A model generated the notes under the pieces. It made no database searches. It was given only the letters and a program-made list of their open reading frames with translations, and was not told the origin of the DNA. From the NCBI GenBank assembly GCA_964632215.1, contig CAZWBG010000001.1, positions 495,863 to 559,862 of the forward strand: a stretch of 64,000 nucleotides of DNA. The letters are read 5' to 3'. The translations under genes were made by a program, and so were the position numbers. This stretch comes from an uncultured Candidatus Saccharibacteria bacterium (GTDB lineage: Bacteria; Patescibacteriota; Saccharimonadia; Saccharimonadales; UBA7683). Below, piece after piece: positions 2,997-45,559 of the stretch. Within the stretch, counting starts at the first letter, position 1. Every line of letters starts with the position of its first letter.

Positions 2997-4592
2997 TTAT
3001 CTCAGCCGCGCCAATAACTTCCTACTTAGAACAAAACCATACGTGACCACACCTACACCAAGTGCCCCCATAGCCAGCAGCGGTAACTTGGTATTGGCTG
3101 CACCAGTATTGGACCCCCCTGGTAACGAAAACAGCTCAACGTCGTTACCGTCACCACCCTTATAGCTAATTACGAAGTCAACACCATTAATATTCACCAC
3201 AGAACCCTCGGGAAGGTCTTTAAATGTACCTTCAATCGCACCACTACCCGTATTGTTAATAATGATAAATTTATCCCCAGCTCTCGGCTGATAACCTTGT
3301 AACGAGATCAGGTTAAGTGTAGAATCGCCTAACGTAACTGTGCCACTTACGATAAGTTGATCATATTCCGAACAAACAACAGTACCCCCAAGTTCTACTT
3401 CAAATACTGACCCTGTAACTAAATCAACATTCTCAGAAGACGTAAGACATCCAGGACTTGTGCCAGGGGCCAACTTTCCGCCAGCATAAACAGTAATCTT
3501 GCCGACAATACCTGTACCCTTCAATGTCCCACCCTGCAAAATACTTGTCGTACCCCGTATGCCATCAATAATATATGTTTGATTGAATTGAACCACAATA
3601 TTCACATCGGGCTGATCATCGCCAGCGGTTATAACAATCGTCTCAGCTGGAGCTTCGACTGGTCCATTCGGTGTAGCCGAACCATTATTGGAAGAGTTAA
3701 GAGTGAGCGTTCTTGAGCTACCTGAGATAACACCAATTGTGTAGTAGCCACTGATAGCACCAGTAATAATTGTATTTACATCCATCCCAATTTTGACATC
3801 TGTCCCGAGCGTAATACTACCTGCCAATGTTACGGTGTTTGATTCAGGACAAATAGCAGGAGTACAGGGCGTCATCCTTAATATTCCCGTGTCCAAATAG
3901 GTCGAGCCGTTTAGGGTGATTGGCTCGTTAATAGTTGCATTATAATCTGACACATCAAACTCATAAAAACTTAAGCCAGCACCGTTATTAACTATTGTCC
4001 CTGTAGTACTACTTCCAAGACCTGTCGGGGTTTGAACCCGCACCTCTCCAGCGGTAATAGTTAAGCTCCCAGAAAAAGTATTCTCAGCCTCTAAATAAAG
4101 AGTCTCGTCTCCTTCCTTCGTAATATTGCCCGTACCAGAAATCACCCCACCTAGCCGCAATGCCGTGTCTGCCGTCGTTGTGATTGTTTGATTGGCATTT
4201 AATGTAAGTGGTGTGTTGATTCGGTGGAGCGAACCTTCGCCAATCATTGCACCATTGATACCCGCAACAAGCACCATAGAATTCCCGTTAATAATATAGC
4301 GTGAGTTACCCGATGCGGTTCCATTAAAGGTGATTGAGTTGAAAGAAGTCCCAGCCGTAAAGTTATTCTCTATCGTTCTTTTCGAAATATTAGCAGGGAA
4401 CACTAGATCGTCTCCGGCTTGGGGTGCAGAATCTCCTGCCCAGTTTGCTGCGGTATTCATATTGTCGTCACTACCGCCGCCAGTCCAGGTTTTAGCTGCT
4501 GCGAATGTTTCACCAGTACTGAAGAGTGCGACGCCTGCAAAGAGTACGCATACAAAAACCATCAGCTTTAATGACAAGTGGAATTTTTTCAT
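2997..4592 (-). CDS. Large surface protein with autotransporter-associated beta-strand (PATR) repeats and C-terminal anchor
   Basis: 531 aa with a signal peptide. TWTGGGSDDNMNTAANWAGD opening and an ITKEGDETLYLEAENTFSGSLTITAGEVRV PATR-type unit. Gly/Thr/Asn-rich body. C-terminus is GSNTG...hydrophobic helix...RKLLARLR. Confidence 0.7.
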   Translation of the reverse strand: MKKFHLSLKLMVFVCVLFAGVALFSTGETFAAAKTWTGGGSDDNMNTAANWAGDSAPQAGDDLVFPANISKRTIENNFTAGTSFNSITFNGTASGNSRYIINGNSMVLVAGINGAMIGEGSLHRINTPLTLNANQTITTTADTALRLGGVISGTGNITKEGDETLYLEAENTFSGSLTITAGEVRVQTPTGLGSSTTGTIVNNGAGLSFYEFDVSDYNATINEPITLNGSTYLDTGILRMTPCTPAICPESNTVTLAGSITLGTDVKIGMDVNTIITGAISGYYTIGVISGSSRTLTLNSSNNGSATPNGPVEAPAETIVITAGDDQPDVNIVVQFNQTYIIDGIRGTTSILQGGTLKGTGIVGKITVYAGGKLAPGTSPGCLTSSENVDLVTGSVFEVELGGTVVCSEYDQLIVSGTVTLGDSTLNLISLQGYQPRAGDKFIIINNTGSGAIEGTFKDLPEGSVVNINGVDFVISYKGGDGNDVELFSLPGGSNTGAANTKLPLLAMGALGVGVVTYGFVLSRKLLARLR

Positions 4593-8314: not shown

Positions 8315-9730
8315 CTATTCGTAGAATTGCTGATAGCTCGTGATTGTCCAGGTTCTATTGCCTGAAGAAAGTTTTGTACCAAATGTAACCGTACCCGCAC
8401 CGCTCATATCCACCGTCTGACCCAGGGCAGCACCTACGTTACCACTACCACCAATCGAGACCTTACCCCAGTAAGCTTGGAAGATCATTCCCGGCAGATT
8501 TGTTCCGCCATCAACGCGAACAGTTTCAACACCCTGCGAGTTTTTCAAATCATTACCAGTTAACGCCGTACAGTTCGGGTTGCAGCTTGCCGAGGCTTTC
8601 ATGCTAATAAAGTGAATACCTGTACCAAACTTGTTAGCGACCAACTGGGCAGAACCACCAATTGTGATCTTGCCGTCTACTAAGACCACCGGGCGAGTCG
8701 TACCGGCACTATCGTCTACCTTAATTTTTGAAGCACCACCGATAGTTAGATCTCCAGTAATATAAGTATTGCCCCTCATAACAATGTCACAACTTCCACC
8801 CACGTTCACATTACCCGTCAGCCTAAGATCGGCTGGCCACGTACGATCAAACGGCCAGTCAGCACAGACATAGGTATTAGAAGACCCAGTACCTGTAGTT
8901 TGCACCGCACCAACTTGTGCTGGCTTGTCATAGGTTGGGGTAGATATTGGTGGACTCACGCAACTGAGCAGTAACCCCTGGCCACTGCTACCTCCTAAGA
9001 TATTACCAGCAGGATCTGGACCTCGACTCGTTTGACCAGTTGCACAAACAGTTCCATAAATCTTGGTACTCCAATCCATGGTGATGGGCTGTGAGCTTGT
9101 ACAAACTTGTGGGTATGTAGGTCCTGGGGTATTGCCTGTAGGACACACCTGGTTCGCCACCTTCACCTGTAGTGGCTGGCTCTGCGTACCAATACGGGCA
9201 GCACCGTTGAGGCGAATTGTACCGTTCACATAAACATCGGAGTTCGTAATGTTCGCGCTACCACCCAAAATTAGCCCCCCAGGACCAGTGTGCACAGAAT
9301 AACCCTCCGACCCCGTACCAACTGTAGTAACTCTTACAACACGTGTGTTAATAAGCTTGTCTGAGCCATGCGCGTATATCCTCCCGATAGAAATGATGGT
9401 TTTTGAATTATCAGCAGCAGCATTTGTCACCGTTGTAGTAAACACGCCTCTACCTTGAGTCTCATTGTTAAAGAATTCCTGTTCTGTCTCATAACCCGCA
9501 AAATCGTCACTCTGGTTTAACTGCAGAATAGACTGCTCAACTCCTGCCTCAGAAAGTAACTGAGCGTTTGCAGTATAGACGTTCCGAGTTGTAATACTAT
9601 ACTGCCCGAGAATCAAGTTGGCGAGTGAGAGCCCAAGCACAAGCATGACGACTGTTAAAATCATCAACGTACCGAGCAGCGAGCCAGTTTCGTCTTGCTT
9701 CATACTTTTGTGTGTAAATAGTTTACTCAT
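8315..9730 (-). CDS. Large PilX-like pilus protein (candidate tip or minor pilin with beta-helix-like body)
   Basis: 471 aa. The N-terminus is a charged leader followed by LLGTLMILTVVMLVLGLSLANLIL. The body has Gly/Thr/Asn-rich units (NITNSDVYVNGTIRLNG; LTGNVNVGGSCDIVMRGNTYITGDLTIGGASKIKV). It overlaps the upstream minor pilin gene by 8 nt. Confidence 0.6.
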   Translation of the reverse strand: MSKLFTHKSMKQDETGSLLGTLMILTVVMLVLGLSLANLILGQYSITTRNVYTANAQLLSEAGVEQSILQLNQSDDFAGYETEQEFFNNETQGRGVFTTTVTNAAADNSKTIISIGRIYAHGSDKLINTRVVRVTTVGTGSEGYSVHTGPGGLILGGSANITNSDVYVNGTIRLNGAARIGTQSQPLQVKVANQVCPTGNTPGPTYPQVCTSSQPITMDWSTKIYGTVCATGQTSRGPDPAGNILGGSSGQGLLLSCVSPPISTPTYDKPAQVGAVQTTGTGSSNTYVCADWPFDRTWPADLRLTGNVNVGGSCDIVMRGNTYITGDLTIGGASKIKVDDSAGTTRPVVLVDGKITIGGSAQLVANKFGTGIHFISMKASASCNPNCTALTGNDLKNSQGVETVRVDGGTNLPGMIFQAYWGKVSIGGSGNVGAALGQTVDMSGAGTVTFGTKLSSGNRTWTITSYQQFYE

Positions 9731-23374: not shown

Positions 23375-24907
23375 TCATCCCGATGGTCGAGATCCGCCAG
23401 ACTTGTCTCGTAATCTCACGATGAAGTTTTTGATATCGTTGCGATATTCATATAGCCCATAGCCCACGGCCATCAACGTCACGACAATAATGATCCAGAA
23501 ATTGAGCCTCACCGGATTGATAGCAGCTGGCTGTGAGAGTGTACCGGTGGCAGTCCCCGAACCTGCACCGGTTGCTTTTCGACAGCGATTGGTTGCAGGG
23601 TTGCGTTCGTAGCCAGGCTGGCAAGGTGTCGGACTCGATGAAGTCGCGGCTACTTTACGGCATCTGTTAGTTTCCGTGTTTCTCTCTTCTCCAACTCCAC
23701 AAGGCGCAAGTACTGAAACAGCACCTGCAATCTTGCGACAACGATTCGTCTCGGAATTACGCTCTTCCCCTGGATCACAAGCAGCCAGTGTGGCCTCGGC
23801 AGTTTCTAAATTCTTACATCGATTCGTTTCAGGGTTCCGATATTTGCCTTCTGGGCAAGCCGCAGATTCAGCCTCACTCACTACCGCCTCTAGTTCAGGA
23901 AGTATTAGTTGATTTTCAGCACCAGGCGTGGCGCTTAGTGTGAGTTGCCAGACACCTTGTAGCGACATCCACGCCGTATCATCAGCAAGATGAGCCGGAT
24001 ACTGTACTACTTGTTTGGTTGTCGGTGTAATAAATTCTACGGTTCCATCCGCACTATTGGGTAATGTTAAACCATAAAATGCCTGATAACCTGGTTGTAT
24101 GTAGCCTTGCAATATTTTTTGAGCAGAACCAACCCTTAGCACGCAATCAGTAAGGTCTATGGGTTGTGAGGTAGTATTGTGCAGCTCTATAAATTCTGTA
24201 CCCGCATCACTACCAGCAGGATTAGGTACGATCTCGCTAATTTCAATACCCTGACATTGGGCCACGGGCAAAGAGATAAGTGTACAGTCTCCACCCGCCG
24301 TTATTTCATAGCCAGCCGGGAGATCTTCTTGCAAACCAGAAAGATTCAGACAACTATCAAGTAGGCTCACTTGAAAATCATTGAGATTATGACCCGTGTC
24401 TACGAGCTGATCCTGAGTAGTTGTCTTCCTTGTCAAAAACTGCGTGCTTAATGGAACAGGTGCCGGTTTGCCCTTGAAACAAGGTGAATTACTCTGAGTA
24501 GATCCCCATCCAACCAAATCGTGTACAAGACTATCTTGTCTCAACCGCAGAGATCCGCCAACATTATCGTTTAGACTCACTGCAAACTGTGCTTCACTCT
24601 TGGCTGACAGCTGACCACTCAAGCCCACTTCGCTTGTTGCTGAGGAATTATCGCTGACCTTCCAACTCGGCACGTTACAGTCGGGAAGATGTGCGCTTGG
24701 TTTGGCATATTCCAATACCCAACCCGTCAGATCTAGCGGCTCGTGAGTCGTGTTATATAGTTTCACGTATTCTGTAAGCTCACCCGAAACAGCACCGCCC
24801 AGTTTGATTTCATTTATCAAAACAGTCGAAGCTACAGCCTGGGCGGGAAGCGATACTGCTACAAAAGAAATGGAAAAGAATACAACAGCCAAGATAAATC
24901 GCTTCAT
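23375..24907 (-). CDS. Secreted protein with two lamin-tail domains and four Cys-bracketed repeats, C-terminal TM helix
   Basis: Signal peptide. LTD-type segments VLINEIKLGG...EYVKLYNTTHEPLDLTGWVL and ISEIVPNPAGSDAGTEFIELHNTTSQPIDLTDCVL. Four repeats of the form C-x2-G-x-[YE]-R-N-x-[EA]-T-N-R-C-[KR]-[KN]. TM helix FWIIIVVTLMAVGYGLY. Confidence 0.75.
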   Translation of the reverse strand: MKRFILAVVFFSISFVAVSLPAQAVASTVLINEIKLGGAVSGELTEYVKLYNTTHEPLDLTGWVLEYAKPSAHLPDCNVPSWKVSDNSSATSEVGLSGQLSAKSEAQFAVSLNDNVGGSLRLRQDSLVHDLVGWGSTQSNSPCFKGKPAPVPLSTQFLTRKTTTQDQLVDTGHNLNDFQVSLLDSCLNLSGLQEDLPAGYEITAGGDCTLISLPVAQCQGIEISEIVPNPAGSDAGTEFIELHNTTSQPIDLTDCVLRVGSAQKILQGYIQPGYQAFYGLTLPNSADGTVEFITPTTKQVVQYPAHLADDTAWMSLQGVWQLTLSATPGAENQLILPELEAVVSEAESAACPEGKYRNPETNRCKNLETAEATLAACDPGEERNSETNRCRKIAGAVSVLAPCGVGEERNTETNRCRKVAATSSSPTPCQPGYERNPATNRCRKATGAGSGTATGTLSQPAAINPVRLNFWIIIVVTLMAVGYGLYEYRNDIKNFIVRLRDKSGGSRPSG

Positions 24908-27324: not shown

Positions 27325-27837
27325 CTACCAAGGGCAAGAGTTTGTTTCTGTGCCAGCTATAATTTCTTGGTTTCCATACACGAAAGCGTGTTTATCCCAA
27401 AAATCTATACTATTCTTGGTTGCAGTAGCTGATTGCGGGAAAGGCTCATCATTCTTCTCATCAAAAACTCCGATCCAAGCACTTGATAAAAAGTAGTCGC
27501 TATTCGCCTGGCGAACTAGATGCATTGCTACAGTAGAGCAATCATCTCCTTTGCGATTCTTAACAAAAGGTACAAGACCATCATCTTCCCTATTTTTTCT
27601 AACCCCATACACTAATATGTCATCTTCATTCGTTTCTATAACATCGCAAACACCAATTGTGCGACCTATATCCACATGAGTTTTTATTTCATCATCTTCT
27701 AAACTCATTCTAGAAATAACTTCTATTAGTAGGTTCTTTAGTTGAGGAGTGTCATCAATATGGGTAGCGGTATGTGAACCCACAGGGTCGTAGACAACGC
27801 GCACTCTATTCTTGGACTTTGCAAGTAGCTCATTCAT
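27325..27837 (-). CDS. Hypothetical cytoplasmic protein (no family recognised)
   Basis: 170-aa acidic ORF with no TM helix or signal peptide. Low GC by hand count (21/60 on the line starting at 27601). Flanked by the 27-nt direct repeats. Confidence 0.55.
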   Translation of the reverse strand: MNELLAKSKNRVRVVYDPVGSHTATHIDDTPQLKNLLIEVISRMSLEDDEIKTHVDIGRTIGVCDVIETNEDDILVYGVRKNREDDGLVPFVKNRKGDDCSTVAMHLVRQANSDYFLSSAWIGVFDEKNDEPFPQSATATKNSIDFWDKHAFVYGNQEIIAGTETNSCPW

Positions 27838-28888: not shown

Positions 28889-28965
28889 TGGAGGGTCCAG
28901 TGGGGCTCGAACCCACGACACCCTGCTTAAAAGGCAGGTGCTCTAACCAGCTGAGCTATGGACCC
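28889..28965 (-). tRNA. tRNA-Lys (anticodon UUU)
   Basis: 77-nt cloverleaf read by hand. Acceptor GGGTCCA/TGGACCC, D arm GCTC..GAGC, anticodon arm CCTGC-CTTTTAA-GCAGG, T arm GTGGG-TTCGAGC-CCCAC, encoded CCA. Confidence 0.9.
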
Positions 28966-29156: not shown

Positions 29157-29642
29157 TCAATTTTTCTTTTTCGGTTCTTTTCTCACGCTATGAGTTAAGG
29201 TCATTTCCAACACAGCCAGTACCGCAGCAGCTGCTAAGATAGCGTTTTCGTAAGGGTCTAGGAAAAAGAGAAAACCTGAGGTTGTGATACTGGCTGGCAC
29301 AAAACTCAGTGGTTGTAGAATTTGAACCCCAAAAAATACTACTAAAATACCTAGCATAATACTCGTTAGTAATGAAAGTACAGGATTAGATCGATGGACC
29401 TTAACTGCAAAGAGTGAAACCAGCATCGGCAAAAACGTTAGTACTAGCTGCACTACAACCGGTACATAGACCCGAACACTAGAGCTGGTCGAAGGCAAGA
29501 GACCAATAACCCAAGTACCGAGTAACTGATTGAGTAAAACTCCAGCCAGCAGCCCTAAAATGGCCACGCCTGCGCTCGTCTTCTTTACAAAGACCACAAG
29601 CGTTACGAAAATCGCAATTCCAAGCATAATTATATCTGCCAC
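29157..29642 (-). CDS. Polytopic membrane protein, unknown function
   Basis: 161 aa with 4-5 TM helices and a Lys-rich C-terminus. Last gene of the rimK-strand block. Confidence 0.55.
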   Translation of the reverse strand: MADIIMLGIAIFVTLVVFVKKTSAGVAILGLLAGVLLNQLLGTWVIGLLPSTSSSVRVYVPVVVQLVLTFLPMLVSLFAVKVHRSNPVLSLLTSIMLGILVVFFGVQILQPLSFVPASITTSGFLFFLDPYENAILAAAAVLAVLEMTLTHSVRKEPKKKN

Positions 29643-29680: not shown

Positions 29681-30181
29681 TTACAGCTCAAATTCTACCC
29701 TATCACCAATCTTGATGGTATATTTCTGGGCGTAGCCAGCATTGGTCTCAAGTACATACTGTGCAGGCATTTTAGGGACAAATGTTTTCGGGTATGAGGC
29801 GGGCTGAACATTTGATTCAATATGTACAATTTCTTTTTCGGAGTTTAGCCACATAATATCCAATGGAATTCTAGTGTCTTTCATCCAGAAAGCGTAGCTA
29901 CCAGGCATGTCGTAGACAAAGAGCATACCAGCGTTTTCCGGTAAGCTGTCACGGCAACATAGGCCTCGTTCTTTTTCTTGCGATGATGTCGCAATTTGTA
30001 ATTCTAACGCTTGATCATGAATAGTAGCAGTGGGTATAATTTTTTGCGATCTTGTCGCAAAAAATAAGAGAAGTACCAAAATAATGCATAAAACTATGCC
30101 TATACTACCTAAAGTAGCCGTTTTACGCACCCACTTTGTCTTTTTTATTACTCCGCTTTGCGTTGATCTCGATATAGTCAA
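29681..30181 (-). CDS. DUF192 family protein with N-terminal membrane anchor
   Basis: ENAGMLFVY...FWMKDTRIPLDIMWL...VLETNAG segments typical of DUF192. The track start 30181 is a TTG. An alternative GTG at 30130 would overlap the rimK stop by 8 nt. Confidence 0.7.
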   Translation of the reverse strand: MTISRSTQSGVIKKTKWVRKTATLGSIGIVLCIILVLLLFFATRSQKIIPTATIHDQALELQIATSSQEKERGLCCRDSLPENAGMLFVYDMPGSYAFWMKDTRIPLDIMWLNSEKEIVHIESNVQPASYPKTFVPKMPAQYVLETNAGYAQKYTIKIGDRVEFEL

Positions 30182-31037
30182 TTATCTTGGCTGCGACGTT
30201 CCGCCCCGTTACCTTCTCGATACCACCAAGTCCGGGACTTGAGTTAACCTCTAGCACCAAAGGGCCTCTGCTTGATCGCATCATATCTACACCACAGATT
30301 GGGAGTCCCATAGATTTGGCGGCTTTAAGGGCAGTCTTCTTTTCTTCATCAGTTAGTTTTATCGATGCCCCTTCACCACCCTGGTGTAGGTTGCTACGAA
30401 AGTCATCGTCAAGGCTTTGTCGTTTCATACTAGCAACGACTCGACCACCCACTACGAAGGCCCTAATGTCTTCACCAGCAGATTCCTCAATAAATTCTTG
30501 CAGAAGGATGTTGGTCCCATCCTCATTATGCAGATAGAAGGCTTGCAGCACAGATTTTGCAGCTTTTTTGGTTTCCGCGAGTACCACGCCATTTCCGTGT
30601 GTACCACGTGCAAGCTTAATGATTACTGGAGTACCACCAACCTGCTCCAAGAGATCTTCGATATCGGTAGTATTACGTGAGAAAACTGTCTTAGGTATCC
30701 CCACTCCAGCCTTAGAAAGAAGCTGCAAAGAACGCAGCTTATCACGCGAACGAACAATCGCAATGGAGGTTGCGGTGGTATAAACTCCCTGCATTTCAAA
30801 TTGGCGCACAATAGCCGTACCATACCGTGTCATACTACTACCGATACGTGGAATAATTGCATCTACATTTTGTAGATCTTCGCCCCTGTAACTGACCGTC
30901 GGATTACTCCGTTCTATAGAGGCGTAGCACTCTCTATGTTTTACTACTCGAACCGAATGTCCGCGAAGCTTGGCCTCCTCTTTCAGCCTCTTAGTTGTAT
31001 AGTTTCCGGGTCCGTTTGAAAGAATAATGACATTCAT
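30123..31037 (-). CDS. rimK: Ribosomal protein S6 glutamate ligase RimK (ATP-grasp)
   Basis: Alignable by eye with E. coli RimK along its length: IPRIGSSMTRYGTAIVRQFEMQG, SRDKLRSLQLL, DFRSNLHQGG, GVDMMRSSRGPLVLEVNSSPGLGGIE. Confidence 0.9.
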   Translation of the reverse strand: MNVIILSNGPGNYTTKRLKEEAKLRGHSVRVVKHRECYASIERSNPTVSYRGEDLQNVDAIIPRIGSSMTRYGTAIVRQFEMQGVYTTATSIAIVRSRDKLRSLQLLSKAGVGIPKTVFSRNTTDIEDLLEQVGGTPVIIKLARGTHGNGVVLAETKKAAKSVLQAFYLHNEDGTNILLQEFIEESAGEDIRAFVVGGRVVASMKRQSLDDDFRSNLHQGGEGASIKLTDEEKKTALKAAKSMGLPICGVDMMRSSRGPLVLEVNSSPGLGGIEKVTGRNVAAKIIDYIEINAKRSNKKDKVGA

Positions 31038-31537
31038 GACTCGTCCGCCCTATCCTCTTCGTCATCTGGCATCTCGATACCGTATTGTTTCTTAAGCTCA
31101 ATTCTATTTATACTGGTTTCGTTTGTATCCACAAAAAATCTGCCGTTCAAAAGTTTTCTACCAATTAAAATTGGGTATATCTTCTTAGATCGGTCCGCAA
31201 GAGTAAAGGATGCTCTGAAAACTCGAGGGCCCAGCTTTACCCTTAGCCAGACCTCATATCTATCTTCACGGTGCCCAAATGAGTTTGCTACTCCGACCTG
31301 TTTAAATGTATCTGCAATAATGGTCTGAGAAAGCGCTCCGCAGACGGGGTGACCACCTAATAAGTCGAATTTAAGCTTGGCTCCATCATCAATAAGTACA
31401 ATATTCTCAGCATGGATAGCCGAGCGATACGCACCAGTATCGGTCTTAGCGGGAATACCGCTAATATCAAAGTCTAAGAAGTGCAGTACTTCTGCACGTC
31501 CAATAATTACTTTGTGAAAATCTTTTTTCGTTGCCAT
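31034..31537 (-). CDS. RimB-type retropepsin-like / putative ATP-dependent zinc protease family protein
   Basis: 167 aa. GRAEVLHFLDF...IPAKTDTGAYRSAIHA is typical of the family that commonly precedes rimK. ATGA overlap with rimK. Confidence 0.7.
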   Translation of the reverse strand: MATKKDFHKVIIGRAEVLHFLDFDISGIPAKTDTGAYRSAIHAENIVLIDDGAKLKFDLLGGHPVCGALSQTIIADTFKQVGVANSFGHREDRYEVWLRVKLGPRVFRASFTLADRSKKIYPILIGRKLLNGRFFVDTNETSINRIELKKQYGIEMPDDEEDRADES

Positions 31538-31647
31538 AAGTGAGTTACCTATTGTTAGTATATACTGCTAATGTATATTGGTCATTAATAATCGACTAGT
31601 CATTTAATACTTGAAATATTCTAACATAAGTAGTAAAATAAGTCAAT

Positions 31648-32889
31648 ATGAAAAAGCGTATACTAATTGTTGGTCAAAAGATATCTATCCTGGTGAATTA
31701 TCTGGAAGAGAACGGTTATGACTATATCGTCCTAAAAGACGTAAAGCGCACCAAGTTTCCTGATCGTCAGTTCAAGCGTCGCGTGCTATGCGATTTCTCG
31801 AGTCGCGATAAAGTCCTTGCCACTATTGATGAGATCAAGAAACCTATCCATGGAATAATAGCCACTTACGAAACCTACATTTTACCCGCCGCCTGGATTG
31901 CAGAGCATCTTCAGCTGCCGAGTATTCCAGTCAAAAGCGCCGAGGCCTGTACGGATAAGTTCATCATGCGAAGCTTATTCGCCAAAGCACCAGAGAAGAT
32001 TAGTCCAGATTTTATGGTAATTAACTCAGAGCAAGATGTTCGTAGCTTTGCCCAAAATCACGAGTTTCCATTAATTATTAAGCCCGCCAATCTCTCTAAA
32101 AGTCTCTTGGTCACAAAAAATCATGACCTTAATGAACTACTCGAGAACTACCGTAAAACCATGAATGTCATTAATGATGTCTACCTAAAGTATGCGCCCG
32201 ACCGTAAACCAAAACTACTTATTGAAGAGTTTATGGAAGGAACCATTCACTCGGTTGATGCTTTTGTCGACAAAGACGGTACCCCTCAGGTATTAAACCA
32301 GGTTGTTGATTATCAAACTGGGTACGATATTGGATACGATGACAACTTCCACTACAGTCGAGTACTCCCTTCTCAGCTGTCCAACGACGATCAAGAGGCA
32401 CTACGCCACTGCGCAGAAGTAGGTATTCGTGCCCTCGGAATGAAGAGTTCGCCAGCACACGTAGAAATTATTATGACAAAAGATGGCCCTCGACTTGTTG
32501 AGATTGGTGCTCGTAACGGTGGCTACCGTGAAAGAATGCACAAACTAGCGAACGGGATTGATATTACTGGGGCCGCACTTGCGCTTGTAGTAGGGTCCAA
32601 GCCAAACATTACTGCCACAAAAAATGAATCGTGTGCAGTGCTGGAGTTATTCCCACGAAGAAAAGGTGCTTTTAACGGTATCGCTAATGAATCTGTACTA
32701 AAAAATCTGGAGTCCCTTGAGCGCTATAGTATTAAAGTGAAACATGGCGAGACAGTTGGTAAATCAAGTGATGGATATAAGACACCGCTCGTTATTATCT
32801 TACACGCTTCGAACTCTGATATTCTCACACGTGACCTCTTTATAATTCAGGATAAAATTAGAGTCCTTACCAACGTAGACCCACAGTAA
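31648..32889 (+). CDS. ATP-grasp enzyme, L-amino-acid-ligase / carboxylate-amine ligase-like
   Basis: 413 aa. Rossmann-like pre-ATP-grasp N-terminus, FPLIIKPANLSKS, LLIEEFMEG, HVEIIMTKDGPRLVEIGARNGG. Confidence 0.75.
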   Translation: MKKRILIVGQKISILVNYLEENGYDYIVLKDVKRTKFPDRQFKRRVLCDFSSRDKVLATIDEIKKPIHGIIATYETYILPAAWIAEHLQLPSIPVKSAEACTDKFIMRSLFAKAPEKISPDFMVINSEQDVRSFAQNHEFPLIIKPANLSKSLLVTKNHDLNELLENYRKTMNVINDVYLKYAPDRKPKLLIEEFMEGTIHSVDAFVDKDGTPQVLNQVVDYQTGYDIGYDDNFHYSRVLPSQLSNDDQEALRHCAEVGIRALGMKSSPAHVEIIMTKDGPRLVEIGARNGGYRERMHKLANGIDITGAALALVVGSKPNITATKNESCAVLELFPRRKGAFNGIANESVLKNLESLERYSIKVKHGETVGKSSDGYKTPLVIILHASNSDILTRDLFIIQDKIRVLTNVDPQ

Positions 32890-32890
32890 G

Positions 32891-33910
32891 TTACGGCAGC
32901 AGGGTCGCAAGATACTCGACATACTTCTGAGTTACATTACGTGATTTACCACTGGTTGGTTTATCATGTATGGCCAGTGACGGGCACTTATTTAACTCCA
33001 CTATCACCGGTTGTAGATCATCAACAGTAGCATCTTTGGTGGGCCGTGTGCGCATCATGAAGTCAACACCGCATACTGGAAGTCCAATAGCCCGTGAAGC
33101 AGAAGTAGCCATATCGCGCATCCACTGAGGTGTATCATCCGTAATGTCAATAATCTCACCCCCGGCACCATAGTTGGCGATACCCAATACAAATACTTCT
33201 TCATCTCTTTCTGGGATTTTTGATACATCATCGCCCAAATACGTCGCAGCTGCTTCGGAATTAATGTACGCCAGTGCAGCACGATACGGCTCACCTCTGT
33301 TTCCAGAATTATTCTCTATTTCTATGAGTTCAGTAATACTATGCACACCATCTCCTGTAACTCGCGCAGGTACACGGTGAATCGCACCAGCAAATTCGTA
33401 ATTAATAGTGGCTATTCGTATATCTAGAATCTCTGGGTAATCATACTGTTTCTGAATAACTGCTGCCCGAATATTTTTAGCATTATCCATCGCAATATTA
33501 AGTGCAGCATCAAGAGCATTACTCTCGGTGATTCCGACGGTGATTCCCTTGCCATGCCCGCCATCAAGTGGTTTCACCACAACCTTCTCTGACGCCTGTA
33601 GAAATTTCTTGACTCGCGGATCATCCTTTTCCTTATCTTTTACGAGTATAGTTGGAAGTTGCTTAATACCGTTTGATTCAAGAAGGCAATGTGTGGCATA
33701 TTTATTATTTGCAATATGCCCTGCCGCGTAACTACTCGTTGGAGGCGTAGTACTAAAGATATGTATTGTTCGGTCACCCTTGGTTATGAATATGTTTGGA
33801 CAGCCAACATAGGGCACCTCCGCCTTCCAGTTGTGGCGTTTTATCTCGTCCTGAATAAGTTGCTGTCCCGTATTCAAACTAGCTGTATCAATACTTAAAA
33901 AATCTACCAT
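32891..33910 (-). CDS. ATP-grasp ligase resembling the cyanophycin-synthetase G domain / GshAB C-terminal domain
   Basis: 339 aa. VVVKPLDGGHGKGITVGI, HRVPARVTGDGVHSITELIEIENNSGNRGEPY, GVDFMM...VIVELNKCPSL. Confidence 0.7.
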   Translation of the reverse strand: MVDFLSIDTASLNTGQQLIQDEIKRHNWKAEVPYVGCPNIFITKGDRTIHIFSTTPPTSSYAAGHIANNKYATHCLLESNGIKQLPTILVKDKEKDDPRVKKFLQASEKVVVKPLDGGHGKGITVGITESNALDAALNIAMDNAKNIRAAVIQKQYDYPEILDIRIATINYEFAGAIHRVPARVTGDGVHSITELIEIENNSGNRGEPYRAALAYINSEAAATYLGDDVSKIPERDEEVFVLGIANYGAGGEIIDITDDTPQWMRDMATSASRAIGLPVCGVDFMMRTRPTKDATVDDLQPVIVELNKCPSLAIHDKPTSGKSRNVTQKYVEYLATLLP

Positions 33911-33927
33911 ATACTCAACGTCCCTTC

Positions 33928-34746
33928 TTATTCATTACATAATTCTTCGATAACTCTAGCTGCTACATTAAATCCAACAAGCTCACTGATTCCAAAACCT
34001 GGAGATGGATTAACTTCAAGTACAAGCGGACCTTTGTTACTGTCTATAATATCTACTCCTGAAAAGTCGAGATTTAAGCTTCTATTAGCAGCTACTGCGA
34101 TTCTTTTCTCTTCTTCCGTAGGCTTGTGTGCAATTGCTGCACCACCTTGGTGAAGGTTGGCCCTAAAATCTCCGGAGTCAGCCGTACGTTTCATCGCTGC
34201 TATAATCTTATCACCTGCTACAATAACCCTTTTATCCGAGCCTTGTGATTCTTCTATATATTCCTGGCTAAGAAGTTTCGGGCTAACAGCAAATAACTCT
34301 TCTGCTTTTTTAGCAAACTCCTCCTTGTTTTTAATTAGTTCAACTCCAATGCCCCTATTACCATGTGGAACCTTAAGTACGAGAGGAAATGAAAGTGTTT
34401 CTACGGGCGTAAGACACGTAATAATGCTCGATTTAGGTGTCGGCACATCATGAGATATGAGTATTTCATATGTTTTGATCTTATCAAATCCAGTAAGTAC
34501 TGACTGAAGTTGCTTCAACTTTTGACCCTTCAGATTCTTGGCAAGCTCTATATATAAGGTGTAGCTTTTTGGCCCAAGACGATATATTACTTTATTCGCA
34601 AGCTCTATATCCTCTAAAATTGTATCACTCGTAATCAACGCCAGCTTTGATGTACAACCGAGCCCATCGGCAGCCTGCAACAATGCATTTGCTCCAGGAC
34701 TTGTACGAGATAATGTTGTAATGCAGAGGGTATTTTTGTTTGACAT
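33928..34746 (-). CDS. RimK-family ATP-grasp ligase paralogue
   Basis: 272 aa. FPLVLKVPHGNRGIGV, DFRANLHQGGAA, GVDIIDSNKGPLVLEVNPSPGFG. The next ATP-grasp gene follows 17 nt downstream. Confidence 0.8.
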   Translation of the reverse strand: MSNKNTLCITTLSRTSPGANALLQAADGLGCTSKLALITSDTILEDIELANKVIYRLGPKSYTLYIELAKNLKGQKLKQLQSVLTGFDKIKTYEILISHDVPTPKSSIITCLTPVETLSFPLVLKVPHGNRGIGVELIKNKEEFAKKAEELFAVSPKLLSQEYIEESQGSDKRVIVAGDKIIAAMKRTADSGDFRANLHQGGAAIAHKPTEEEKRIAVAANRSLNLDFSGVDIIDSNKGPLVLEVNPSPGFGISELVGFNVAARVIEELCNE

Positions 34747-34936
34747 AATGAAACTACTATATCATACCTAGACTATGTCACCCTAGTGGGCTCATCTTCT
34801 TGAACTTGGCACCAAAACTCGGATACTTCACACTGACGAATTAATTGATTTGCATACTTTATAGGCTTACATCTTGTATTTCAATAATTAGTTTGGCATT
34901 ATGAGGGTAGTTATTTATATAAACTTAGGAGGAACT

Positions 34937-36460: not shown

Positions 36461-37066
36461 TTATCCTATCAAGCTATAAAAATATTCAGAGAAACGGGTT
36501 AGTACGAGGGTGATAACAATTAAGTAGGTTATGGCGATGAACTTGCCCGAGTTATTAGCAAATACGCTCCCAAGAGCACCTCTTAGTTTAATGTGTCCTT
36601 GCCGAATGTTCCAAGCCAACGTTGTCCAGAATATTGGAATAGTGACGGTCCAGACGGCTATACAGTACAGGCAAAGCTTACCAATATCGTACAAGCTTTG
36701 AGAGATCAGCCAAGCGCAGAACAAGAAACCGAATGCGGTACCAGCTTGAAATGTTAGCCAATACCAACGTTTTGGAATCCTGACACCAGCTAGGAGTGTC
36801 ATACCAACAACCAATACACAGGCGAAGCCAAAGATACCAATGAGTGGATTAGGAACACCGAAGAATACCTTGCCCTGCCACGAGCCAATAACTGGCGAAC
36901 AGGCCACTACTGGGCTAATTGAGCAGCTCGGGACGTAGTCTGGATTGGCTGCAATATGTATCTTCTCTATAGTTAAGATAGTGGATGCTAATACGCCGAT
37001 AACCGCACCGATTACCAAAACCCAGGGAAACACTTTTTCAAACGATAGTTTTTTTAGTATATGCAT
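36461..37066 (-). CDS. Vitamin K epoxide reductase (VKOR) family membrane protein
   Basis: 201 aa with 4-5 TM helices, a loop Cys pair (CSISPVVAC) and a CLYC active-site motif in a TM helix. Confidence 0.8.
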   Translation of the reverse strand: MHILKKLSFEKVFPWVLVIGAVIGVLASTILTIEKIHIAANPDYVPSCSISPVVACSPVIGSWQGKVFFGVPNPLIGIFGFACVLVVGMTLLAGVRIPKRWYWLTFQAGTAFGFLFCAWLISQSLYDIGKLCLYCIAVWTVTIPIFWTTLAWNIRQGHIKLRGALGSVFANNSGKFIAITYLIVITLVLTRFSEYFYSLIG

Positions 37067-40771: not shown

Positions 40772-41392
40772 ATGAAAAAGCTCACATCTTCTGAAATGCT
40801 ACCGATCATTGGCGAATGGCTCGGTACGGGTAGTATCAATATTTTTGGTATACCTTTTTCTGGGAAAGACACACAGGGTGAACTTTTATCTGAATATCTG
40901 AGTGCCTCGGTGATCGGTAGCGGTGACATACTGCGCAGTAGTGTTTTATCTACCGAGGCCAAAGAAACAATGGATGCTGGTAACCTGCCCCCTTCCGAAG
41001 AATTTTTTAGAGTTGTCCTGCCCTATTTCAACAAACCTGAATATTCGCAGACTGCCCTTGTACTAAGCTCAGTTGGTCGCTGGAAGGGTGAAGAAACAAA
41101 GGTGATTCAAGCTGCACAAGAATCTGGCCACCCTATAAAAGCGGCCTTCCTACTTACCCTACCCGAGGAAGTAGCGTTTGAGCGTAAGGCAAAAGTTGAA
41201 CGTAACCGAAATGATGATGCTAGCACGCAGATTCTAGAAAAACGAATGGAAGAGTTTCGTACAAAAACACTGCCCGCCCTGCAGACCTATCGGCAACTTG
41301 GCTTACTTATTGAAGTAGATGGCAGTCAATCTCCAGAAGAAGTAAAACAAGAAATTATCACGCTTCTGTACCAACATGCGACTGGAGAGTGA
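40772..41392 (+). CDS. Adenylate kinase-family nucleoside monophosphate kinase (divergent P-loop)
   Basis: GIPFSGKDTQ (Adk has GxPGxGKGTQ), SGDILR, MDAGNL, and a C-terminal LIEVDGSQSPEEV segment that aligns by eye with Adk. Confidence 0.6.
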   Translation: MKKLTSSEMLPIIGEWLGTGSINIFGIPFSGKDTQGELLSEYLSASVIGSGDILRSSVLSTEAKETMDAGNLPPSEEFFRVVLPYFNKPEYSQTALVLSSVGRWKGEETKVIQAAQESGHPIKAAFLLTLPEEVAFERKAKVERNRNDDASTQILEKRMEEFRTKTLPALQTYRQLGLLIEVDGSQSPEEVKQEIITLLYQHATGE

Positions 41393-41396
41393 GACA

Positions 41397-42656
41397 ATGT
41401 CAGACATCCCGGCTCACCTTATTAATACACTCCAAAAAGCCCAGACCTTCCTAACCAAAGATTTACCTGCCCTACCTGGAGCCCACCATAAAACTGACCG
41501 AGAATCCCGATACCTACAGAATCAAAAACTCTTCGAAATGCTTGGTAATCCACAGAATACACACAAGGTTATTCACGTCGCGGGAACAAGCGGAAAAGGT
41601 ACCGTTAGCTACCTGGTTGATGCCATGCTCCGAGCCCACGACAAACAAACGGGGTTACTAGTTAGCCCTCATGTGTATGATATTCGTGAGCGAATACAAC
41701 TTAACGGTCAATTTATAAGTGAACGGCAGTTTATAGAAACCCTCAACCAGCTCTTGCCATTTATACAAAAACTGAATACCACCCAACAAACACCCCACTA
41801 CTTTGAGACTTTGTTGCTACTTGGGTTTATGGCGAGCTCAACACGCAGTCTAGATTACCTGGTTGTTGAGGCGGGTGTAGGTGGGCGCTACTCACCCACG
41901 AATTTAGTTAACCGAGATGATACTTACGGCGTCATAACTCAAATAGGGCTTGATCATACCGACCGCCTTGGCACCACCTACGAGCAGATCACTACTGAGA
42001 AATCTGGCATCATAAAGCCAAATATGTGGCTGACTGCTCTGCGCCAGCGCAGCGGGGTTAATGATATTATTGCAAAAACTGCCCAGGCCGAGCAAGCAGA
42101 TCTCTCTTGGGTAGAATCTTCCAAAGATTATGAGACCGATGATCTCCTTTTAGCCCTAGACTGTGTTCGGCGCCTAGCCGAACGTGACGGCTGGAGTTTT
42201 GACGAAGAACTTGCCAAGCAAGCTGCCCATAAACTCTATATACCTGGCCGTTATGAAAAACGTAGCTTCTTAGACCACTCAGTTGTTCTAGATGGTGCAC
42301 ACAACCCTCAAAAACTGACTGCCCTAAGCTCGCGTCTAGGCCGAGATAAAATTGCACCCTGTACGTTCGTGCTGGCTATTGGTACACATAAAGATTACGT
42401 AAACTCACTCTTAGCACTCAAGCACGTAGCCCAGCGAATTATCTGCTGTGAATTCTTTTTACACGAACCAGAGGTACCTGGGCGACCTGTCAGTGCTCGG
42501 GTGCTTGGAGAAACCGCCAGAAAGCTTGGTTTTAGCCAGGTAGAGATCATACCAGAACCAGTTTTGGCTTTTCGTTTTGGCCTACAATTCCCAGAACCCG
42601 TCGTAGTAGCTGGTTCGTTCTATCTACTTGGTGAAGTCGACAAAGTATTTAATTAG
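41397..42656 (+). CDS. folC: Folylpolyglutamate synthase / dihydrofolate synthase-like Mur ligase
   Basis: VIHVAGTSGKGTV P-loop, FolC-like length and C-terminal domain. ATG 41397 (GGAGAG upstream) and ATG 41376 are both possible starts. Confidence 0.75.
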   Translation: MSDIPAHLINTLQKAQTFLTKDLPALPGAHHKTDRESRYLQNQKLFEMLGNPQNTHKVIHVAGTSGKGTVSYLVDAMLRAHDKQTGLLVSPHVYDIRERIQLNGQFISERQFIETLNQLLPFIQKLNTTQQTPHYFETLLLLGFMASSTRSLDYLVVEAGVGGRYSPTNLVNRDDTYGVITQIGLDHTDRLGTTYEQITTEKSGIIKPNMWLTALRQRSGVNDIIAKTAQAEQADLSWVESSKDYETDDLLLALDCVRRLAERDGWSFDEELAKQAAHKLYIPGRYEKRSFLDHSVVLDGAHNPQKLTALSSRLGRDKIAPCTFVLAIGTHKDYVNSLLALKHVAQRIICCEFFLHEPEVPGRPVSARVLGETARKLGFSQVEIIPEPVLAFRFGLQFPEPVVVAGSFYLLGEVDKVFN

Positions 42657-42689: not shown

Positions 42690-43139
42690 ATGAAAGCAGC
42701 AGATTTTTCACTTACCGATCAAGATGGAACTACTAAAACCCTAAAAGATTTTGCAGGCACATGGTTAGTTCTCTATTTTTACCCAAAAGATGATACACCT
42801 GGTTGCACAGTTGAGGCTTGTAGCCTGCGAGATGCCAACGATGAACTTATTGCGCTGGGCGCTAACGTAGTTGGTATCAGCAAAGATGATGCAGATTCGC
42901 ACCGTAATTTTAAGGCCAAGCACCAGCTTAACTTCACACTACTAAGCGATCCTGATGGTAAAACTATCGAGGCTTATGGTGCATGGGGCAAGAAAATGTT
43001 TGGCAAAGAAGGAATTCTCAGAAAAACTTTTATTATCAACCCTTCGGGTGAGATCGTAAAGACCTACGGCCGCGTCACCCCGCTCGGTCACGGCGAACAA
43101 GTAGTAGAAGAGCTCAAAAGACTACAATCGACTAGTTAA
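42690..43139 (+). CDS. bcp: Thiol peroxidase Bcp (peroxiredoxin)
   Basis: FYPKDDTPGCTVEAC active-site motif. AAGGAG Shine-Dalgarno sequence. Confidence 0.9.
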   Translation: MKAADFSLTDQDGTTKTLKDFAGTWLVLYFYPKDDTPGCTVEACSLRDANDELIALGANVVGISKDDADSHRNFKAKHQLNFTLLSDPDGKTIEAYGAWGKKMFGKEGILRKTFIINPSGEIVKTYGRVTPLGHGEQVVEELKRLQSTS

Positions 43140-45559
43140 TGCTTATGCAGTCTTAAGTATGTACGTCGAACTACATAGAGCAGGGCCACCCCTGACACAA
43201 TAAGAGCCACTGCTTGCACCAGCCGCCTATTAAAGCCAGTTGGTGCTAGCCCATCTCCTCCAGGTATTAGGGGGTTCGGAGGTGCTGGATTGCCCGGGAA
43301 GCAGTTGCCGAAACAGGTAAAATTAAAGCTCTGGTCGTCAATTTCAAAGAGATTACCAGACACATACAATGCATTATTGCTCGGTGAAAAGAGTAGATTG
43401 TCCATATTCCAGCCAGCAACGTTTTGGATTACCGGGTTAAAATCTGTAACGATTCCAGTGGCTGTGTCGAAAGCGGCAAGGCGGTTGCGTGGCACGGAGC
43501 CGTTCACCATAGACATCCCTCCCCCGCCAACATACAAAACCGTCTCATCGCTGGTGAGTGTTAGGGTTTCGGTGTAATCATTAATATTGGGGTTAAAGCT
43601 GGTCGCAAGACCAGTGGCTGTGTCGAAAGCGGCAAGACGACTACGGGAAATACTGCCGTTCACGGTAGTAAAAACACCAGTTATATAAAGTAAGTCACCG
43701 TCAGCCGTTAGTAATATATCTCGTGTTTCATTATTGAGATTCGGGTTAAAGCTAGTGGCGGTGCCAGTTGAGGTATCGAATGCAGCGAGGCGGTTGCGGG
43801 TAGTACTGCCGTTTACGGTCGTAAATGCCCCACCGGCATATAGTGTCTGGCCATCTGGTGAAATATCCATTCCCCATACTGTATTATTCGTATCTGGGTT
43901 AAAGCTTGTTGCGAGACTCGTATTTACATCGAAAGCGGCGAGGCGGTTGCGGGTAGTACTGCCGTTTACGGTAGTGAAGGAACCATGAGCATATAGTGTC
44001 TGACCATCTGGTGAAAGCTCAATACCCAACGCAATGGCATTCAATTCAGGGTTAAAATCCGTAAGACTGCCGTCACTCGTATTAAGCGCTGCCATACGAA
44101 GGCGCACTTGGCCATTGACACCAGTAAAATGTCCGCTCACATAGAGCATGCTCTCATCAGGTGATAAAGCGAGCCCCCATACAGAATTATTAAAAGTAGG
44201 GTTGAAGCTGGCATCAACGCTCCCATCTGGCAAAATCCGAACAAGGTTATTATGCACTCCACCGTATCCACCCATGTATCCACCAACGTAGAAAGTACCC
44301 GTCAAAGAATCATAGCTCAATGACATAACCTCGCCATCTGTTGAGACATTCATGTCAGTAACCGTACCTGTAGTTGCATTAAACTCGGCAAATCTATTAC
44401 GTTGCACGGTATCATTTACCATCACAAAACTACCTCCAACAAAAACAGTCGATTCATCTTGACCAAACGAAAGACTAAAGACTGTTCCGGCATTAAGGTT
44501 TGGGTTAAAGCTGGTGGCTGTGCCAGTCGAGGTATCGAAAGCCGCAAGTCTGTTGCGGGTAGTGCCGCCGTTTACGGTAGTGAAATTACCACCGACATAC
44601 AGAGTAGACCCGTCGGCAGAAAGGAGAACAGAACGAGCAAAGTCATTAAGGTTTGGGTTAAAGCTGGTGGCTGTGCCAGTTGAAGTATCAAAGGCGGCGA
44701 GGCGATTACGGGTAGTCGAGGGGGAGTTAACTGTCGTAAAGTCACCTGCAGCATACAGGATAGATTCATCAGTACTCAGCCTCATAGAATACACTTGATT
44801 GTTGGCAATCGGGTTAAAACTAGTAGCTGTGCCCGTGGCGGTATCGAAAGCAGCAATCCTAGTGCGAGCCGTTGAACCGTTCACAGTAGTGAAATTACCG
44901 CCCGCATAGAGAGTAGATCCATCATTAGAAAGAAGAATGGAACGAGCATAGCTACTGAGATTTGGATTAAAGCTGGTGGCTGTGCCAGTTGAGGTATCGA
45001 AAGCGGCAAGGCGGTTGCGGGTAGTGCCGCCATTCACGGTAGTGAAGTCACCAGATACGTAGAGTGTGCTTGCGTCAGGACTCAATACAACAGAGAGCAC
45101 TGAACCATTGATATCAGGATTAAAATTTGGATTCAGTGAACCATCGGGAAGAACATGTGCAAGCCGATTACGAGTTGATATTCCTGCGGTAAATTCTCCA
45201 CCAACATACCAACCACCAGCGCCGTCAGGCACTGCGGTACGTACCCCACCATTAAAAGAAATGCTGCTTTGACTTGGCTGTCCGGTGTTTTCATCATACA
45301 AAAACGCACCAATAGAGCGAGTAGCATCCACTGATTTAAAATCACCACTCATATACATGGTGCCGTCCGATGCAGCAATGTTATTAACCACTCGGGAATT
45401 AAATTGAGGTAATGGTGATGCCGGCGTATCTGGCAATACTGGAGCAGCAAATATATCAATCGGTAACATGACAGCCACAAATAAAAGCAAGATCGTAGTG
45501 ATCCATAAAGATTTAAATTGGTACTTTGGCGCTTTGTTCAACCCCATAAACTTCTTCAT
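43136..45559 (-). CDS. Surface protein of about 12 delta-60/DUF5122-type beta-propeller repeats with LAPTG anchor
   Basis: 807 aa with a signal peptide. Repeated unit of about 51-52 aa: GGNFTTVNGGTTRNRLAAFDTSTGTATSFNPNLN. C-terminus is LAPTG + hydrophobic helix + RRTYLRLHKH. Confidence 0.8.
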   Translation of the reverse strand: MKKFMGLNKAPKYQFKSLWITTILLLFVAVMLPIDIFAAPVLPDTPASPLPQFNSRVVNNIAASDGTMYMSGDFKSVDATRSIGAFLYDENTGQPSQSSISFNGGVRTAVPDGAGGWYVGGEFTAGISTRNRLAHVLPDGSLNPNFNPDINGSVLSVVLSPDASTLYVSGDFTTVNGGTTRNRLAAFDTSTGTATSFNPNLSSYARSILLSNDGSTLYAGGNFTTVNGSTARTRIAAFDTATGTATSFNPIANNQVYSMRLSTDESILYAAGDFTTVNSPSTTRNRLAAFDTSTGTATSFNPNLNDFARSVLLSADGSTLYVGGNFTTVNGGTTRNRLAAFDTSTGTATSFNPNLNAGTVFSLSFGQDESTVFVGGSFVMVNDTVQRNRFAEFNATTGTVTDMNVSTDGEVMSLSYDSLTGTFYVGGYMGGYGGVHNNLVRILPDGSVDASFNPTFNNSVWGLALSPDESMLYVSGHFTGVNGQVRLRMAALNTSDGSLTDFNPELNAIALGIELSPDGQTLYAHGSFTTVNGSTTRNRLAAFDVNTSLATSFNPDTNNTVWGMDISPDGQTLYAGGAFTTVNGSTTRNRLAAFDTSTGTATSFNPNLNNETRDILLTADGDLLYITGVFTTVNGSISRSRLAAFDTATGLATSFNPNINDYTETLTLTSDETVLYVGGGGMSMVNGSVPRNRLAAFDTATGIVTDFNPVIQNVAGWNMDNLLFSPSNNALYVSGNLFEIDDQSFNFTCFGNCFPGNPAPPNPLIPGGDGLAPTGFNRRLVQAVALIVSGVALLYVVRRTYLRLHKH

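Follow-up and report, generated by a model that had tools for sequence, protein, structure and literature searches.

The closest described counterparts of the locus reported here are the RimABK system of Pseudomonas, the RloABC locus of P. aeruginosa and several families of ATP-grasp ligases. Pseudomonas RimK glutamylates ribosomal protein S6 (RpsF) and makes free poly-alpha-glutamate, and RimB cleaves runs of at least 5 or 6 glutamates and stimulates poly-alpha-glutamate synthesis by RimK (PMC11957791). The RloABC locus encodes a retropepsin-like peptidase together with a RimK-related ATP-grasp protein; RloA is secreted, and its partner RloB is an inactive transglutaminase with seven transmembrane segments (PMC12239564). 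The G domains of the cyanophycin synthetases CphA1 and CphA2 have a Gcore-Glid-Gomega fold with a P-loop His (PDB 7wae, 7lgm, 7ta5, 8fxi), and GshF/GshAB and Ngg extend a small acyl-amino acid or dipeptide by one amino acid at its alpha-carboxylate. Here we describe a cluster of four ATP-grasp ligases with a RimB-like peptidase, a DUF192 protein and a membrane protein in a 64,000-nucleotide stretch (the window) of contig CAZWBG010000001.1 (assembly GCA_964632215.1, positions 495,863 to 559,862), from an uncultured Saccharibacteria bacterium of the order Saccharimonadales. More than 40 independent loci from Saccharimonadales have this gene set at the same place in the chromosome. The locus is native and conserved, and by motifs and predicted folds its four carboxylate-amine ligases and its aspartic peptidase are all intact.

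On the minus strand, the gene for the RimB-like retropepsin-type aspartic peptidase (31034-31537; PF05618 52.3 bits, with a DTG motif) leads by an ATGA overlap into rimK (30123-31037; NF007764), encoding an alpha-L-glutamate ligase of the S6 modification/poly-alpha-glutamate type. Next comes the gene (29681-30181, minus) of a DUF192 (COG1430) protein (PF02643 110 bits) that has a transmembrane segment at its N-terminus; the longest open reading frame (ORF) of this gene overlaps the end of rimK, and the true start is therefore probably further downstream. The terminal gene of this operon encodes a 161-aa polytopic membrane protein (29157-29642, minus) without a Pfam or NCBIfam family match. A search by tblastn recovered it only in locus L007 (49% identity), and a protein of about 160 aa without a family sits after DUF192 in loci L001, L004, L005, L015 and L108. 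Across a divergent intergenic region of 110 bp (31538-31647) lies the gene for Lal413, a 413-aa ATP-grasp enzyme of the L-amino-acid-ligase (Lal) type (31648-32889, plus). Converging on it is a two-gene minus-strand operon of RimK2, a 272-aa RimK paralogue (33928-34746; TIGR00768), and, after a 17-bp spacer, CphG339, a 339-aa stand-alone homologue of the cyanophycin-synthetase G domain (32891-33910). An earlier sequence-only reading of the window had listed these seven ORFs, all of which were found where it placed them. Pfam and NCBIfam scans confirmed its count of four ATP-grasp ligases in three subfamilies with RimB-like and DUF192 proteins, and the ATGA overlap was real on checking the sequence. 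Sigma-70-like promoter matches lie back to back in the divergent region (31611-31639, plus; 31646-31618, minus), but their number in the whole region equals the shuffle expectation, and the promoter/terminator scan is weak support for a divergent promoter.

Two kinds of system were rejected at this stage. The flanking gaps had been described as free of precursor-sized ORFs, and the ORF scan agreed: no ORF of at least 20 aa lies fully inside 34747-34900, and 31538-31647 contains only ORFs that extend into the flanking genes, with no free-standing small one. No carrier or precursor gene was found within the locus when a LysW-like carrier and a graspetide precursor were considered, and graspetide maturase models scored at most 35 bits, which speaks against a maturase of graspetides or other ribosomally synthesised and post-translationally modified peptides. 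An anti-phage defence system was likewise rejected, as a PADLOC scan matched no cluster protein to a defence-system model.

In neighbourhood comparisons, dozens of genomes of Saccharimonadales, with ligases just 40-70% identical, had the cluster between dnaK-dnaJ and comEC. The proposal of a dedicated multi-ligase locus thereby gained support, since these genes co-localise in many related genomes, and their clustering exceeds chance. The constant core consists of RimB-RimK and a divergently transcribed Lal-type gene, usually with DUF192 and the membrane protein downstream of rimK; toward dnaJ there is a variable slot. A first sample, anchored on CphG339, comprised 20 loci from reference genomes, approximately 19 of them distinct. 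These were from metagenome-assembled genomes of Saccharibacteria/Saccharimonadales, save two labelled ‘Patescibacteria group’ or ‘uncultured bacterium’, and nearly always lay between dnaK-dnaJ and comEC. RimB-RimK was present in about 14 of the 19, Lal413 in about 10 and RimK2 in about 7, and wherever RimK2 and the G-like gene both occurred, RimK2 was directly upstream and co-oriented. A second, independent sample, anchored on Lal413, comprised 28 metagenomic loci of at least 15 kb. RimB-RimK adjoined Lal413 in 27 of them, DnaJ was encoded in 26, and DUF192 lay downstream of RimK in 22. A third RimK-like family (11 loci), an S51 peptidase (7) and RimK2 (3) were less frequent, and the G-like ligase occurred in about half, ranging by profile score from close orthologs to very divergent relatives. 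Lal413 is the most constant partner of RimB-RimK.

The hand-counted low GC that the sequence-only reading reported inside the cluster, and its suggestion of a possibly acquired pathway, did not hold. The 63 genes of the window have a GC content of 0.447 ± 0.026 and a GC at third codon positions (GC3) of 0.405 ± 0.043. Five of the seven cluster genes were within about one standard deviation, RimK2 (GC z -1.9, GC3 z -2.4) and the DUF192 gene (GC z -1.8) stood at the low edge, and per-gene z-scores of codon-usage distance were not raised for any cluster gene. These GC, GC3 and codon-distance scores rule out a compositional island. The neighbours are core chromosomal genes (RNase Y, type IV pilus ATPase, RuvB, YebC, ComEC, DnaJ, DnaK, GrpE, HrcA, Adk and FtsH), and because the cluster keeps its position between dnaKJ and comEC in diverged members of the order, the locus is native, ancient and vertically inherited, not recently acquired.

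With 335.7 bits, RimK of the window passed the S6--L-glutamate ligase equivalog NF007764 (cut-off 331 bits), and it carries the domains PF18030 (Rimk_N, 122 bits) and PF08443 (210 bits). It aligned end to end with P. aeruginosa RimK (7qyr, 331 bits) and over its full length with 5zct. Its orthologs are 64-90% identical across Saccharimonadales loci and share a basic C-terminal tail, ...NAKRRNKKDKVGA in the window (consensus ...NAKRRNKKDK[VI]GA). The RimB-like protein fell under the cut-offs of both NCBIfam RimB (NF052261; 48.3 vs 200 bits) and RloA3 (52.6 vs 210 bits); it is therefore a divergent relative, hence our name for it. The DTG-motif Asp is essential in P. fluorescens RimB, and about 55 orthologs of the RimB-like protein keep the corresponding catalytic motif, AKTDTGAY. 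By eye, its N-terminus, MATKKDFHKVIIGRAEV, has no hydrophobic signal segment, and with the gene overlap this indicates a cytoplasmic protein translationally coupled to rimK.

The pair thus shares with Pseudomonas RimABK (PMC11957791, PMC10092738) a full-length RimK orthologue above the curated cut-off and a two-gene cytoplasmic unit with an overlapping retropepsin-like RimB that has a DTG motif and no signal peptide. By contrast, there is no RimA here, the RimB-like protein is far under the equivalog cut-off and has a lineage-specific ...DEEEGR tail, and the pair has a Lal-type ligase as its constant partner and is followed by DUF192 and the membrane protein. A secreted peptidase and a transglutaminase-like membrane partner, as in RloABC, are features that the present locus does not have. 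RimB-RimK here is a new member of a known system. With S6, S18 and SSB of E. coli and B. subtilis as queries, tblastn found no rpsF, rpsR or ssb gene in the window, nor in the related loci, which total 1.35 Mb.

Most of the approximately 55 RimB-like orthologs end in an acidic ...YGI[DE]FPxDEEEGR, the window copy in ...MPDDEEDRADES, whereas divergent copies in loci L017, L019, L026, L086 and L088 have no acidic tail. This tail resembles the acceptor tails of S6, which are ...DNADE in P. fluorescens and ...GDSEE in E. coli. The acidic tail of RimB-like and the basic tail of RimK could form a docking pair, or the former could be a self- or pseudo-substrate.

Lal413 matched PF13535 (68 bits) and, slightly under the cut-off of 27, PF18130 (23.6 bits). 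Its best solved relatives are the Lals BL00235, BacD/YwfE and RizA. The AlphaFold2 (AF2) model had a predicted local distance difference test score (pLDDT) of 88.9, and Foldseek ranked 3vot, 4wd3 and 3vmm first (template modelling score, TM, 0.72-0.82), ahead of biotin carboxylases; TM was 0.82 to 3vot and 0.79-0.80 to BacD. The family shows uncommonly high conservation: the top 120 homolog clusters are 60-71% identical to Lal413, many of them with PF18130 and PF18603 (LAL_C2). Lal413 thus resembles the characterised Lals, DdaF included, in its three-domain fold and LAL_C2-type C-terminal domain. It differs from them in being only 16-21% identical to any, in scoring far below the models for BacD (42 vs 850 bits) and DdaF (37 vs 840 bits), and in lying outside an antibiotic or secondary-metabolite cluster, fixed beside RimB-RimK in reduced-genome episymbionts.

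CphG339 scored 166 bits against the CphA model TIGR02068 (cut-off 850), 135 against Ngg (569) and 131 against GshAB (NF002688; 425). Its AF2 model (pLDDT 93.7) superposed on TeCphA1 with TM 0.82 over 332 columns, covering the whole G domain, and its structural matches included GshAB 3ln7. It matches CphA residues of approximately 187-470 only, with no N or M domain. Nearly all homologs are likewise stand-alone proteins of about 337 aa, and every named source is Saccharibacteria or the wider Patescibacteria group. Residue roles known for TeCphA1 (PMC9427784) were mapped by HMMER alignment to 7wac, and conservation was scored over 35 family sequences. K70, K113, H119, R165, R179, N246, D283 and E305 of CphG339 were invariant and correspond in the same order to CphA1 K220, K261, H267, R309, R323, N394, D431 and E450, so that the residues handling ATP, Mg, the acyl-phosphate and the carboxylate in the CphA1/CphA2 G domain are kept, together with its fold.

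The residues that bind the substrate in cyanophycin synthesis are altered. In CphA1, Glu215 binds the Arg side chain of the primer and Arg458 binds the alpha-carboxylate of the incoming Asp (PMC9427784). The Glu215 position is His65 in CphG339 and variable in the family (H19, S4, N2, Q2 and others), and the Arg458 position is Ala313 (A19, S6, T4 and others in the family). Furthermore, Tyr247, Gly248 and Lys308 are invariant, where TeCphA1 has Leu395, Ser396 and Ala453. CphG339 therefore has the catalytic residues of the CphA1 G domain and neither its N + G + M architecture nor its Glu215 and Arg458. With the GshF/GshAB C-terminal module and Ngg it shares one ATP-grasp clade; as in Ngg, the partner ligase has an associated GNAT in some relatives of the window locus. 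Unlike these enzymes, CphG339 in the window has no fused glutamate-cysteine ligase or GNAT domain, and its invariant P-loop His119 is CphA1-like, whereas GshF has Tyr or Phe at this position (PMC9427784). We predict that CphG339 is an active ligase that forms a specificity class of its own, being neither a cyanophycin nor a glutathione synthetase.

RimK2 reached 150 bits against the 143.4-bit cut-off of TIGR00768, with no Rimk_N match and a shortened, divergent N-domain. It is 35% identical to RimK and retains DFRxNLHQGG. Its clade comprises about 85 clusters of approximately 265-280 aa without PF18030, and all named sources are Saccharibacteria. All NCBIfam equivalog scores of the three extra ligases (Lal413, CphG339 and RimK2) were far under their cut-offs, so that these fall outside the characterised orthologous groups. 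A canonical Ddl in disguise was also rejected, with the best Ddl-model scores of the ligases at 20-51 bits against cut-offs of at least 243.

In relatives, the variable slot holds almost exclusively amide-bond ligases, peptidases and GNATs: Peptidase_S51, MATCAP/DUF1704-like metallopeptidases, a second Lal-like family, further RimK-like ligases and GNAT genes. The window itself has none of the S51, MATCAP and GNAT genes and no member of the second Lal-like family. MATCAP-like genes are closely coupled to ligases: one overlaps a RimK-like gene in L021 (2918-4899), another a Lal-like gene in L011 (6486-9147), a third is directly upstream of a 443-aa RimB::RimK-like fusion in L017 (11028-13733), and others adjoin an ATP-grasp ligase in L108 (6563-8871) and L004 (10697-13172). 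L108 also encodes a 435-aa RimK2::GNAT fusion (protein P0269, 5180-6487), and free GNAT genes lie beside RimK2 or the G-like ligase in L005 (6625-7107), L032 (12341-12790) and L042 (11853-12332). By analogy with the synthesis of N-acetylaspartylglutamate (NAAG) or N-acetylglutaminylglutamine amide (NAGGN), these GNATs hint that the substrate or product may be N-acetylated.

As to the substrates, the product and a shared pathway of the four ligases, we infer the following. To our knowledge, every characterised Lal-type or G-type relative acts on free amino acids or short peptides, which makes ribosome-independent synthesis of a short peptide the most likely role of the extra ligases by analogy. 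The ligase-peptidase pairs and GNATs in the slot of relatives further suggest that they build or extend such a peptide under regulated turnover. We therefore tentatively favour a cluster that makes and trims glutamate tails or short, probably acidic, peptides or poly-amino acids. RimK would activate a C-terminal alpha-carboxylate as an acyl-phosphate and add L-glutamate repeatedly, on S6 or as free poly-alpha-glutamate, and the retropepsin RimB would bind RimK and trim the glutamate runs. For all four ligases we predict carboxylate-amine ligase activity, with extension at a C-terminal carboxylate. Alongside the RimK chemistry, the extra ligases would build or extend, independently of the ribosome, a short, probably acidic, peptide or poly-amino acid, possibly as a primer, a cap or a parallel product, and peptidases would supply its turnover. 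The conserved R179 and N246 of CphG339, equivalent to R323 and N394, would fit an acidic incoming amino acid. Saccharibacteria have genomes of approximately 0.7-1 Mb from which most biosynthesis is missing, and many environmental members nevertheless keep four to six ATP-consuming ligases at this one locus, which argues for a selected function.

Several observations weigh against this reading. The slot beside Lal413 differs between genomes, so that the four ligases may form two or three independent modules. In loci L015 and L022, DUF192 and the membrane protein are kept without RimB-RimK, and adjacency alone is accordingly no proof of functional coupling. In Southlakia epibionticum, SEML1_0782 (RimB-like), SEML1_0781 (RimK), SEML1_0780 and SEML1_0779 are syntenic with the window genes, next to dnaJ (SEML1_0784), and all four are non-essential by transposon sequencing (PMC10633639 Table S1). 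Dispensability of RimB and RimK there implies that their function is conditional.

An unlikely but credible alternative is a C-terminal ‘tail code’ on proteins, in which RimK, RimK2 and the G-like and Lal-like ligases would tail S6 or other proteins and peptidases would erase the tails, as in glutamylation and tyrosination of tubulin. Eukaryotic MATCAP enzymes remove C-terminal Tyr and Glu from tubulin (PMC10499314), RimK is a bona fide protein-tailing enzyme (PMC11957791), and MATCAP-family peptidases are coupled to RimK-like or Lal-like ligases in the five loci named above. The S6-like acidic tail conserved on RimB-like proteins points the same way, whereas the window has no MATCAP or S51 gene. 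We also know of no characterised Lal-type or CphA-G/GshF/Ngg-type enzyme that modifies a protein, which counts against the idea. A full counterpart of the tubulin code, with ligases as writers, RimB, MATCAP-like and S51 peptidases as erasers and the variable slot as lineage-specific ‘alphabets’, strikes us as quite unlikely.

The genes might instead be syntenic neighbours without a shared pathway, RimB-RimK modifying S6 and the other ligases being unrelated housekeeping enzymes in a hotspot of gene flux. This would account for the varying slot content and for DUF192 and the membrane protein outlasting RimB-RimK. Loci L024 (9965-10951) and L025 (9962-10951), from rumen-type Saccharibacteria, add to it, as each has a divergent G-like ligase (31-33% identity) away from dnaJ/comEC, flanked by RNase HII, YraN-like, NUDIX and HD-domain genes, and such a ligase can evidently function without other cluster members. 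We nevertheless consider the explanation rather unlikely, because Lal413 stays beside RimB-RimK in all but one of the 28 loci despite 50-67% sequence divergence, the RimK2 and G-like genes are consistently co-oriented and overlapping or nearly so, and the slot is filled almost entirely with ligases, peptidases and GNATs.

Cell-wall synthesis is an improbable setting for these enzymes. One or more of them would then synthesise a dipeptide similar to D-Ala-D-Ala, or attach residues of the stem peptide or cross-bridge to precursors of peptidoglycan; the Lal and G-like folds are related to Ddl, and the lineage-specific variation of the slot resembles cross-bridge diversity. The annotation of S. 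epibionticum has MurD, MurE and MurF, no match to the Ddl families PF07478 and PF01820 and no protein named Ddl (PMC10633639 Tables S1/S2), so that its source of D-Ala-D-Ala looks unexplained. Yet this organism has its Mur ligases without Lal413 or the G-like ligase, the Ddl-model scores of the cluster ligases are weak, no mur or fem genes occur in the locus, and the tight partner is a cytoplasmic ribosome-modifying RimB-RimK pair.

A glutathione-like low-molecular-weight thiol made by RimK2 and the G-like ligase, an option of the sequence-only reading, is highly improbable. The likeness to the GshAB C-terminal domain, the two-gene operon with a second ligase and the VKOR and AhpC-type genes nearby would accommodate it, but no glutamate-cysteine ligase homologue was found, RimK2 is of the alpha-ligase type, the P-loop His is not GshF-like and the G-like gene often occurs without RimK2; no specific support for it emerged. 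The other option, a split cyanophycin or cyanophycin-like synthetase that uses a FolC-like Mur ligase encoded in the window at 41376-42656, would draw on the superposition with the whole CphA1 G domain and on S51 (cyanophycinase/PepE family) genes in the slot of some relatives, but it is effectively refuted, because the FolC-like gene, which here lies 7.5 kb from the cluster, does not accompany it in any other locus and the recognition residues are lost, along with any N or M domain.

The components of the cluster that we tentatively assign to glutamate tails and short acidic peptides are from known superfamilies, and their arrangement is new. Three features appear not to have been described before, namely the family of stand-alone G domains with changed recognition residues, the nearly obligate triad of Lal, RimB and RimK, and the modular ligase/peptidase/GNAT slot, and a full-text literature search found no paper linking RimK or ATP-grasp ligases with the phylum Saccharibacteria. 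The CphG339 family offers a compact model of substrate choice in the fold of the cyanophycin polymerase, and the partnership of Lal with RimB-RimK may reveal roles of RimK systems beyond S6 in Proteobacteria. The recurrent coupling of RimK-like and MATCAP-like genes hints that pairs of tail-writing and tail-erasing enzymes may have arisen in prokaryotes. As Saccharibacteria can now be manipulated genetically, these questions can be addressed in vitro and, increasingly, in vivo.

The annotation table of S. epibionticum contains a single PF08443 protein, which suggests that the extra ligases belong to the larger, mostly environmental Saccharimonadales genomes; its S6 is 119 aa long, and the Pfam S6 domain covers residues 4-91 (PMC10633639 Table S1). 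The FolC-like counterpart in this organism is non-essential and located elsewhere in the genome (PMC10633639). In the window, the FolC-like gene (41376-42656, plus; Mur_ligase_M and FOL3_C) and an AhpC/Redoxin gene (42690-43139, plus) come after adk, and a VKOR-family membrane protein is encoded between dnaJ and dnaK (36461-37066, minus). Saccharibacteria are thought to be without folate synthesis, and a FolC-like gene is odd there.

Immediately downstream of the membrane-protein gene of the cluster is a tRNA-Lys(UUU) (28889-28965, minus). A tRNA-like translation artefact at the matching site of locus L010 (15159-15422) suggests that this tRNA is syntenic and not an integration scar. Between a HAD hydrolase gene and comEC lies a 170-aa ORF (27325-27837, minus) with no Pfam, NCBIfam or PADLOC match. 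Its composition is the most deviant of the window (GC z -2.0, GC3 z -2.2 and a codon-usage distance of z +2.55), and it is more likely to be foreign or fast-evolving than any member of the ligase cluster. Possible surface or host-interaction proteins are encoded at 2997-4592, 8315-9730, 23375-24907 and 43136-45559, all on the minus strand. For two large ones among them (531 and 471 aa), no Pfam family matched at E <= 1e-5, and the set also includes a 510-aa protein with a lamin-tail domain and an 807-aa beta-propeller (DUF5122/Rax2-like) protein.

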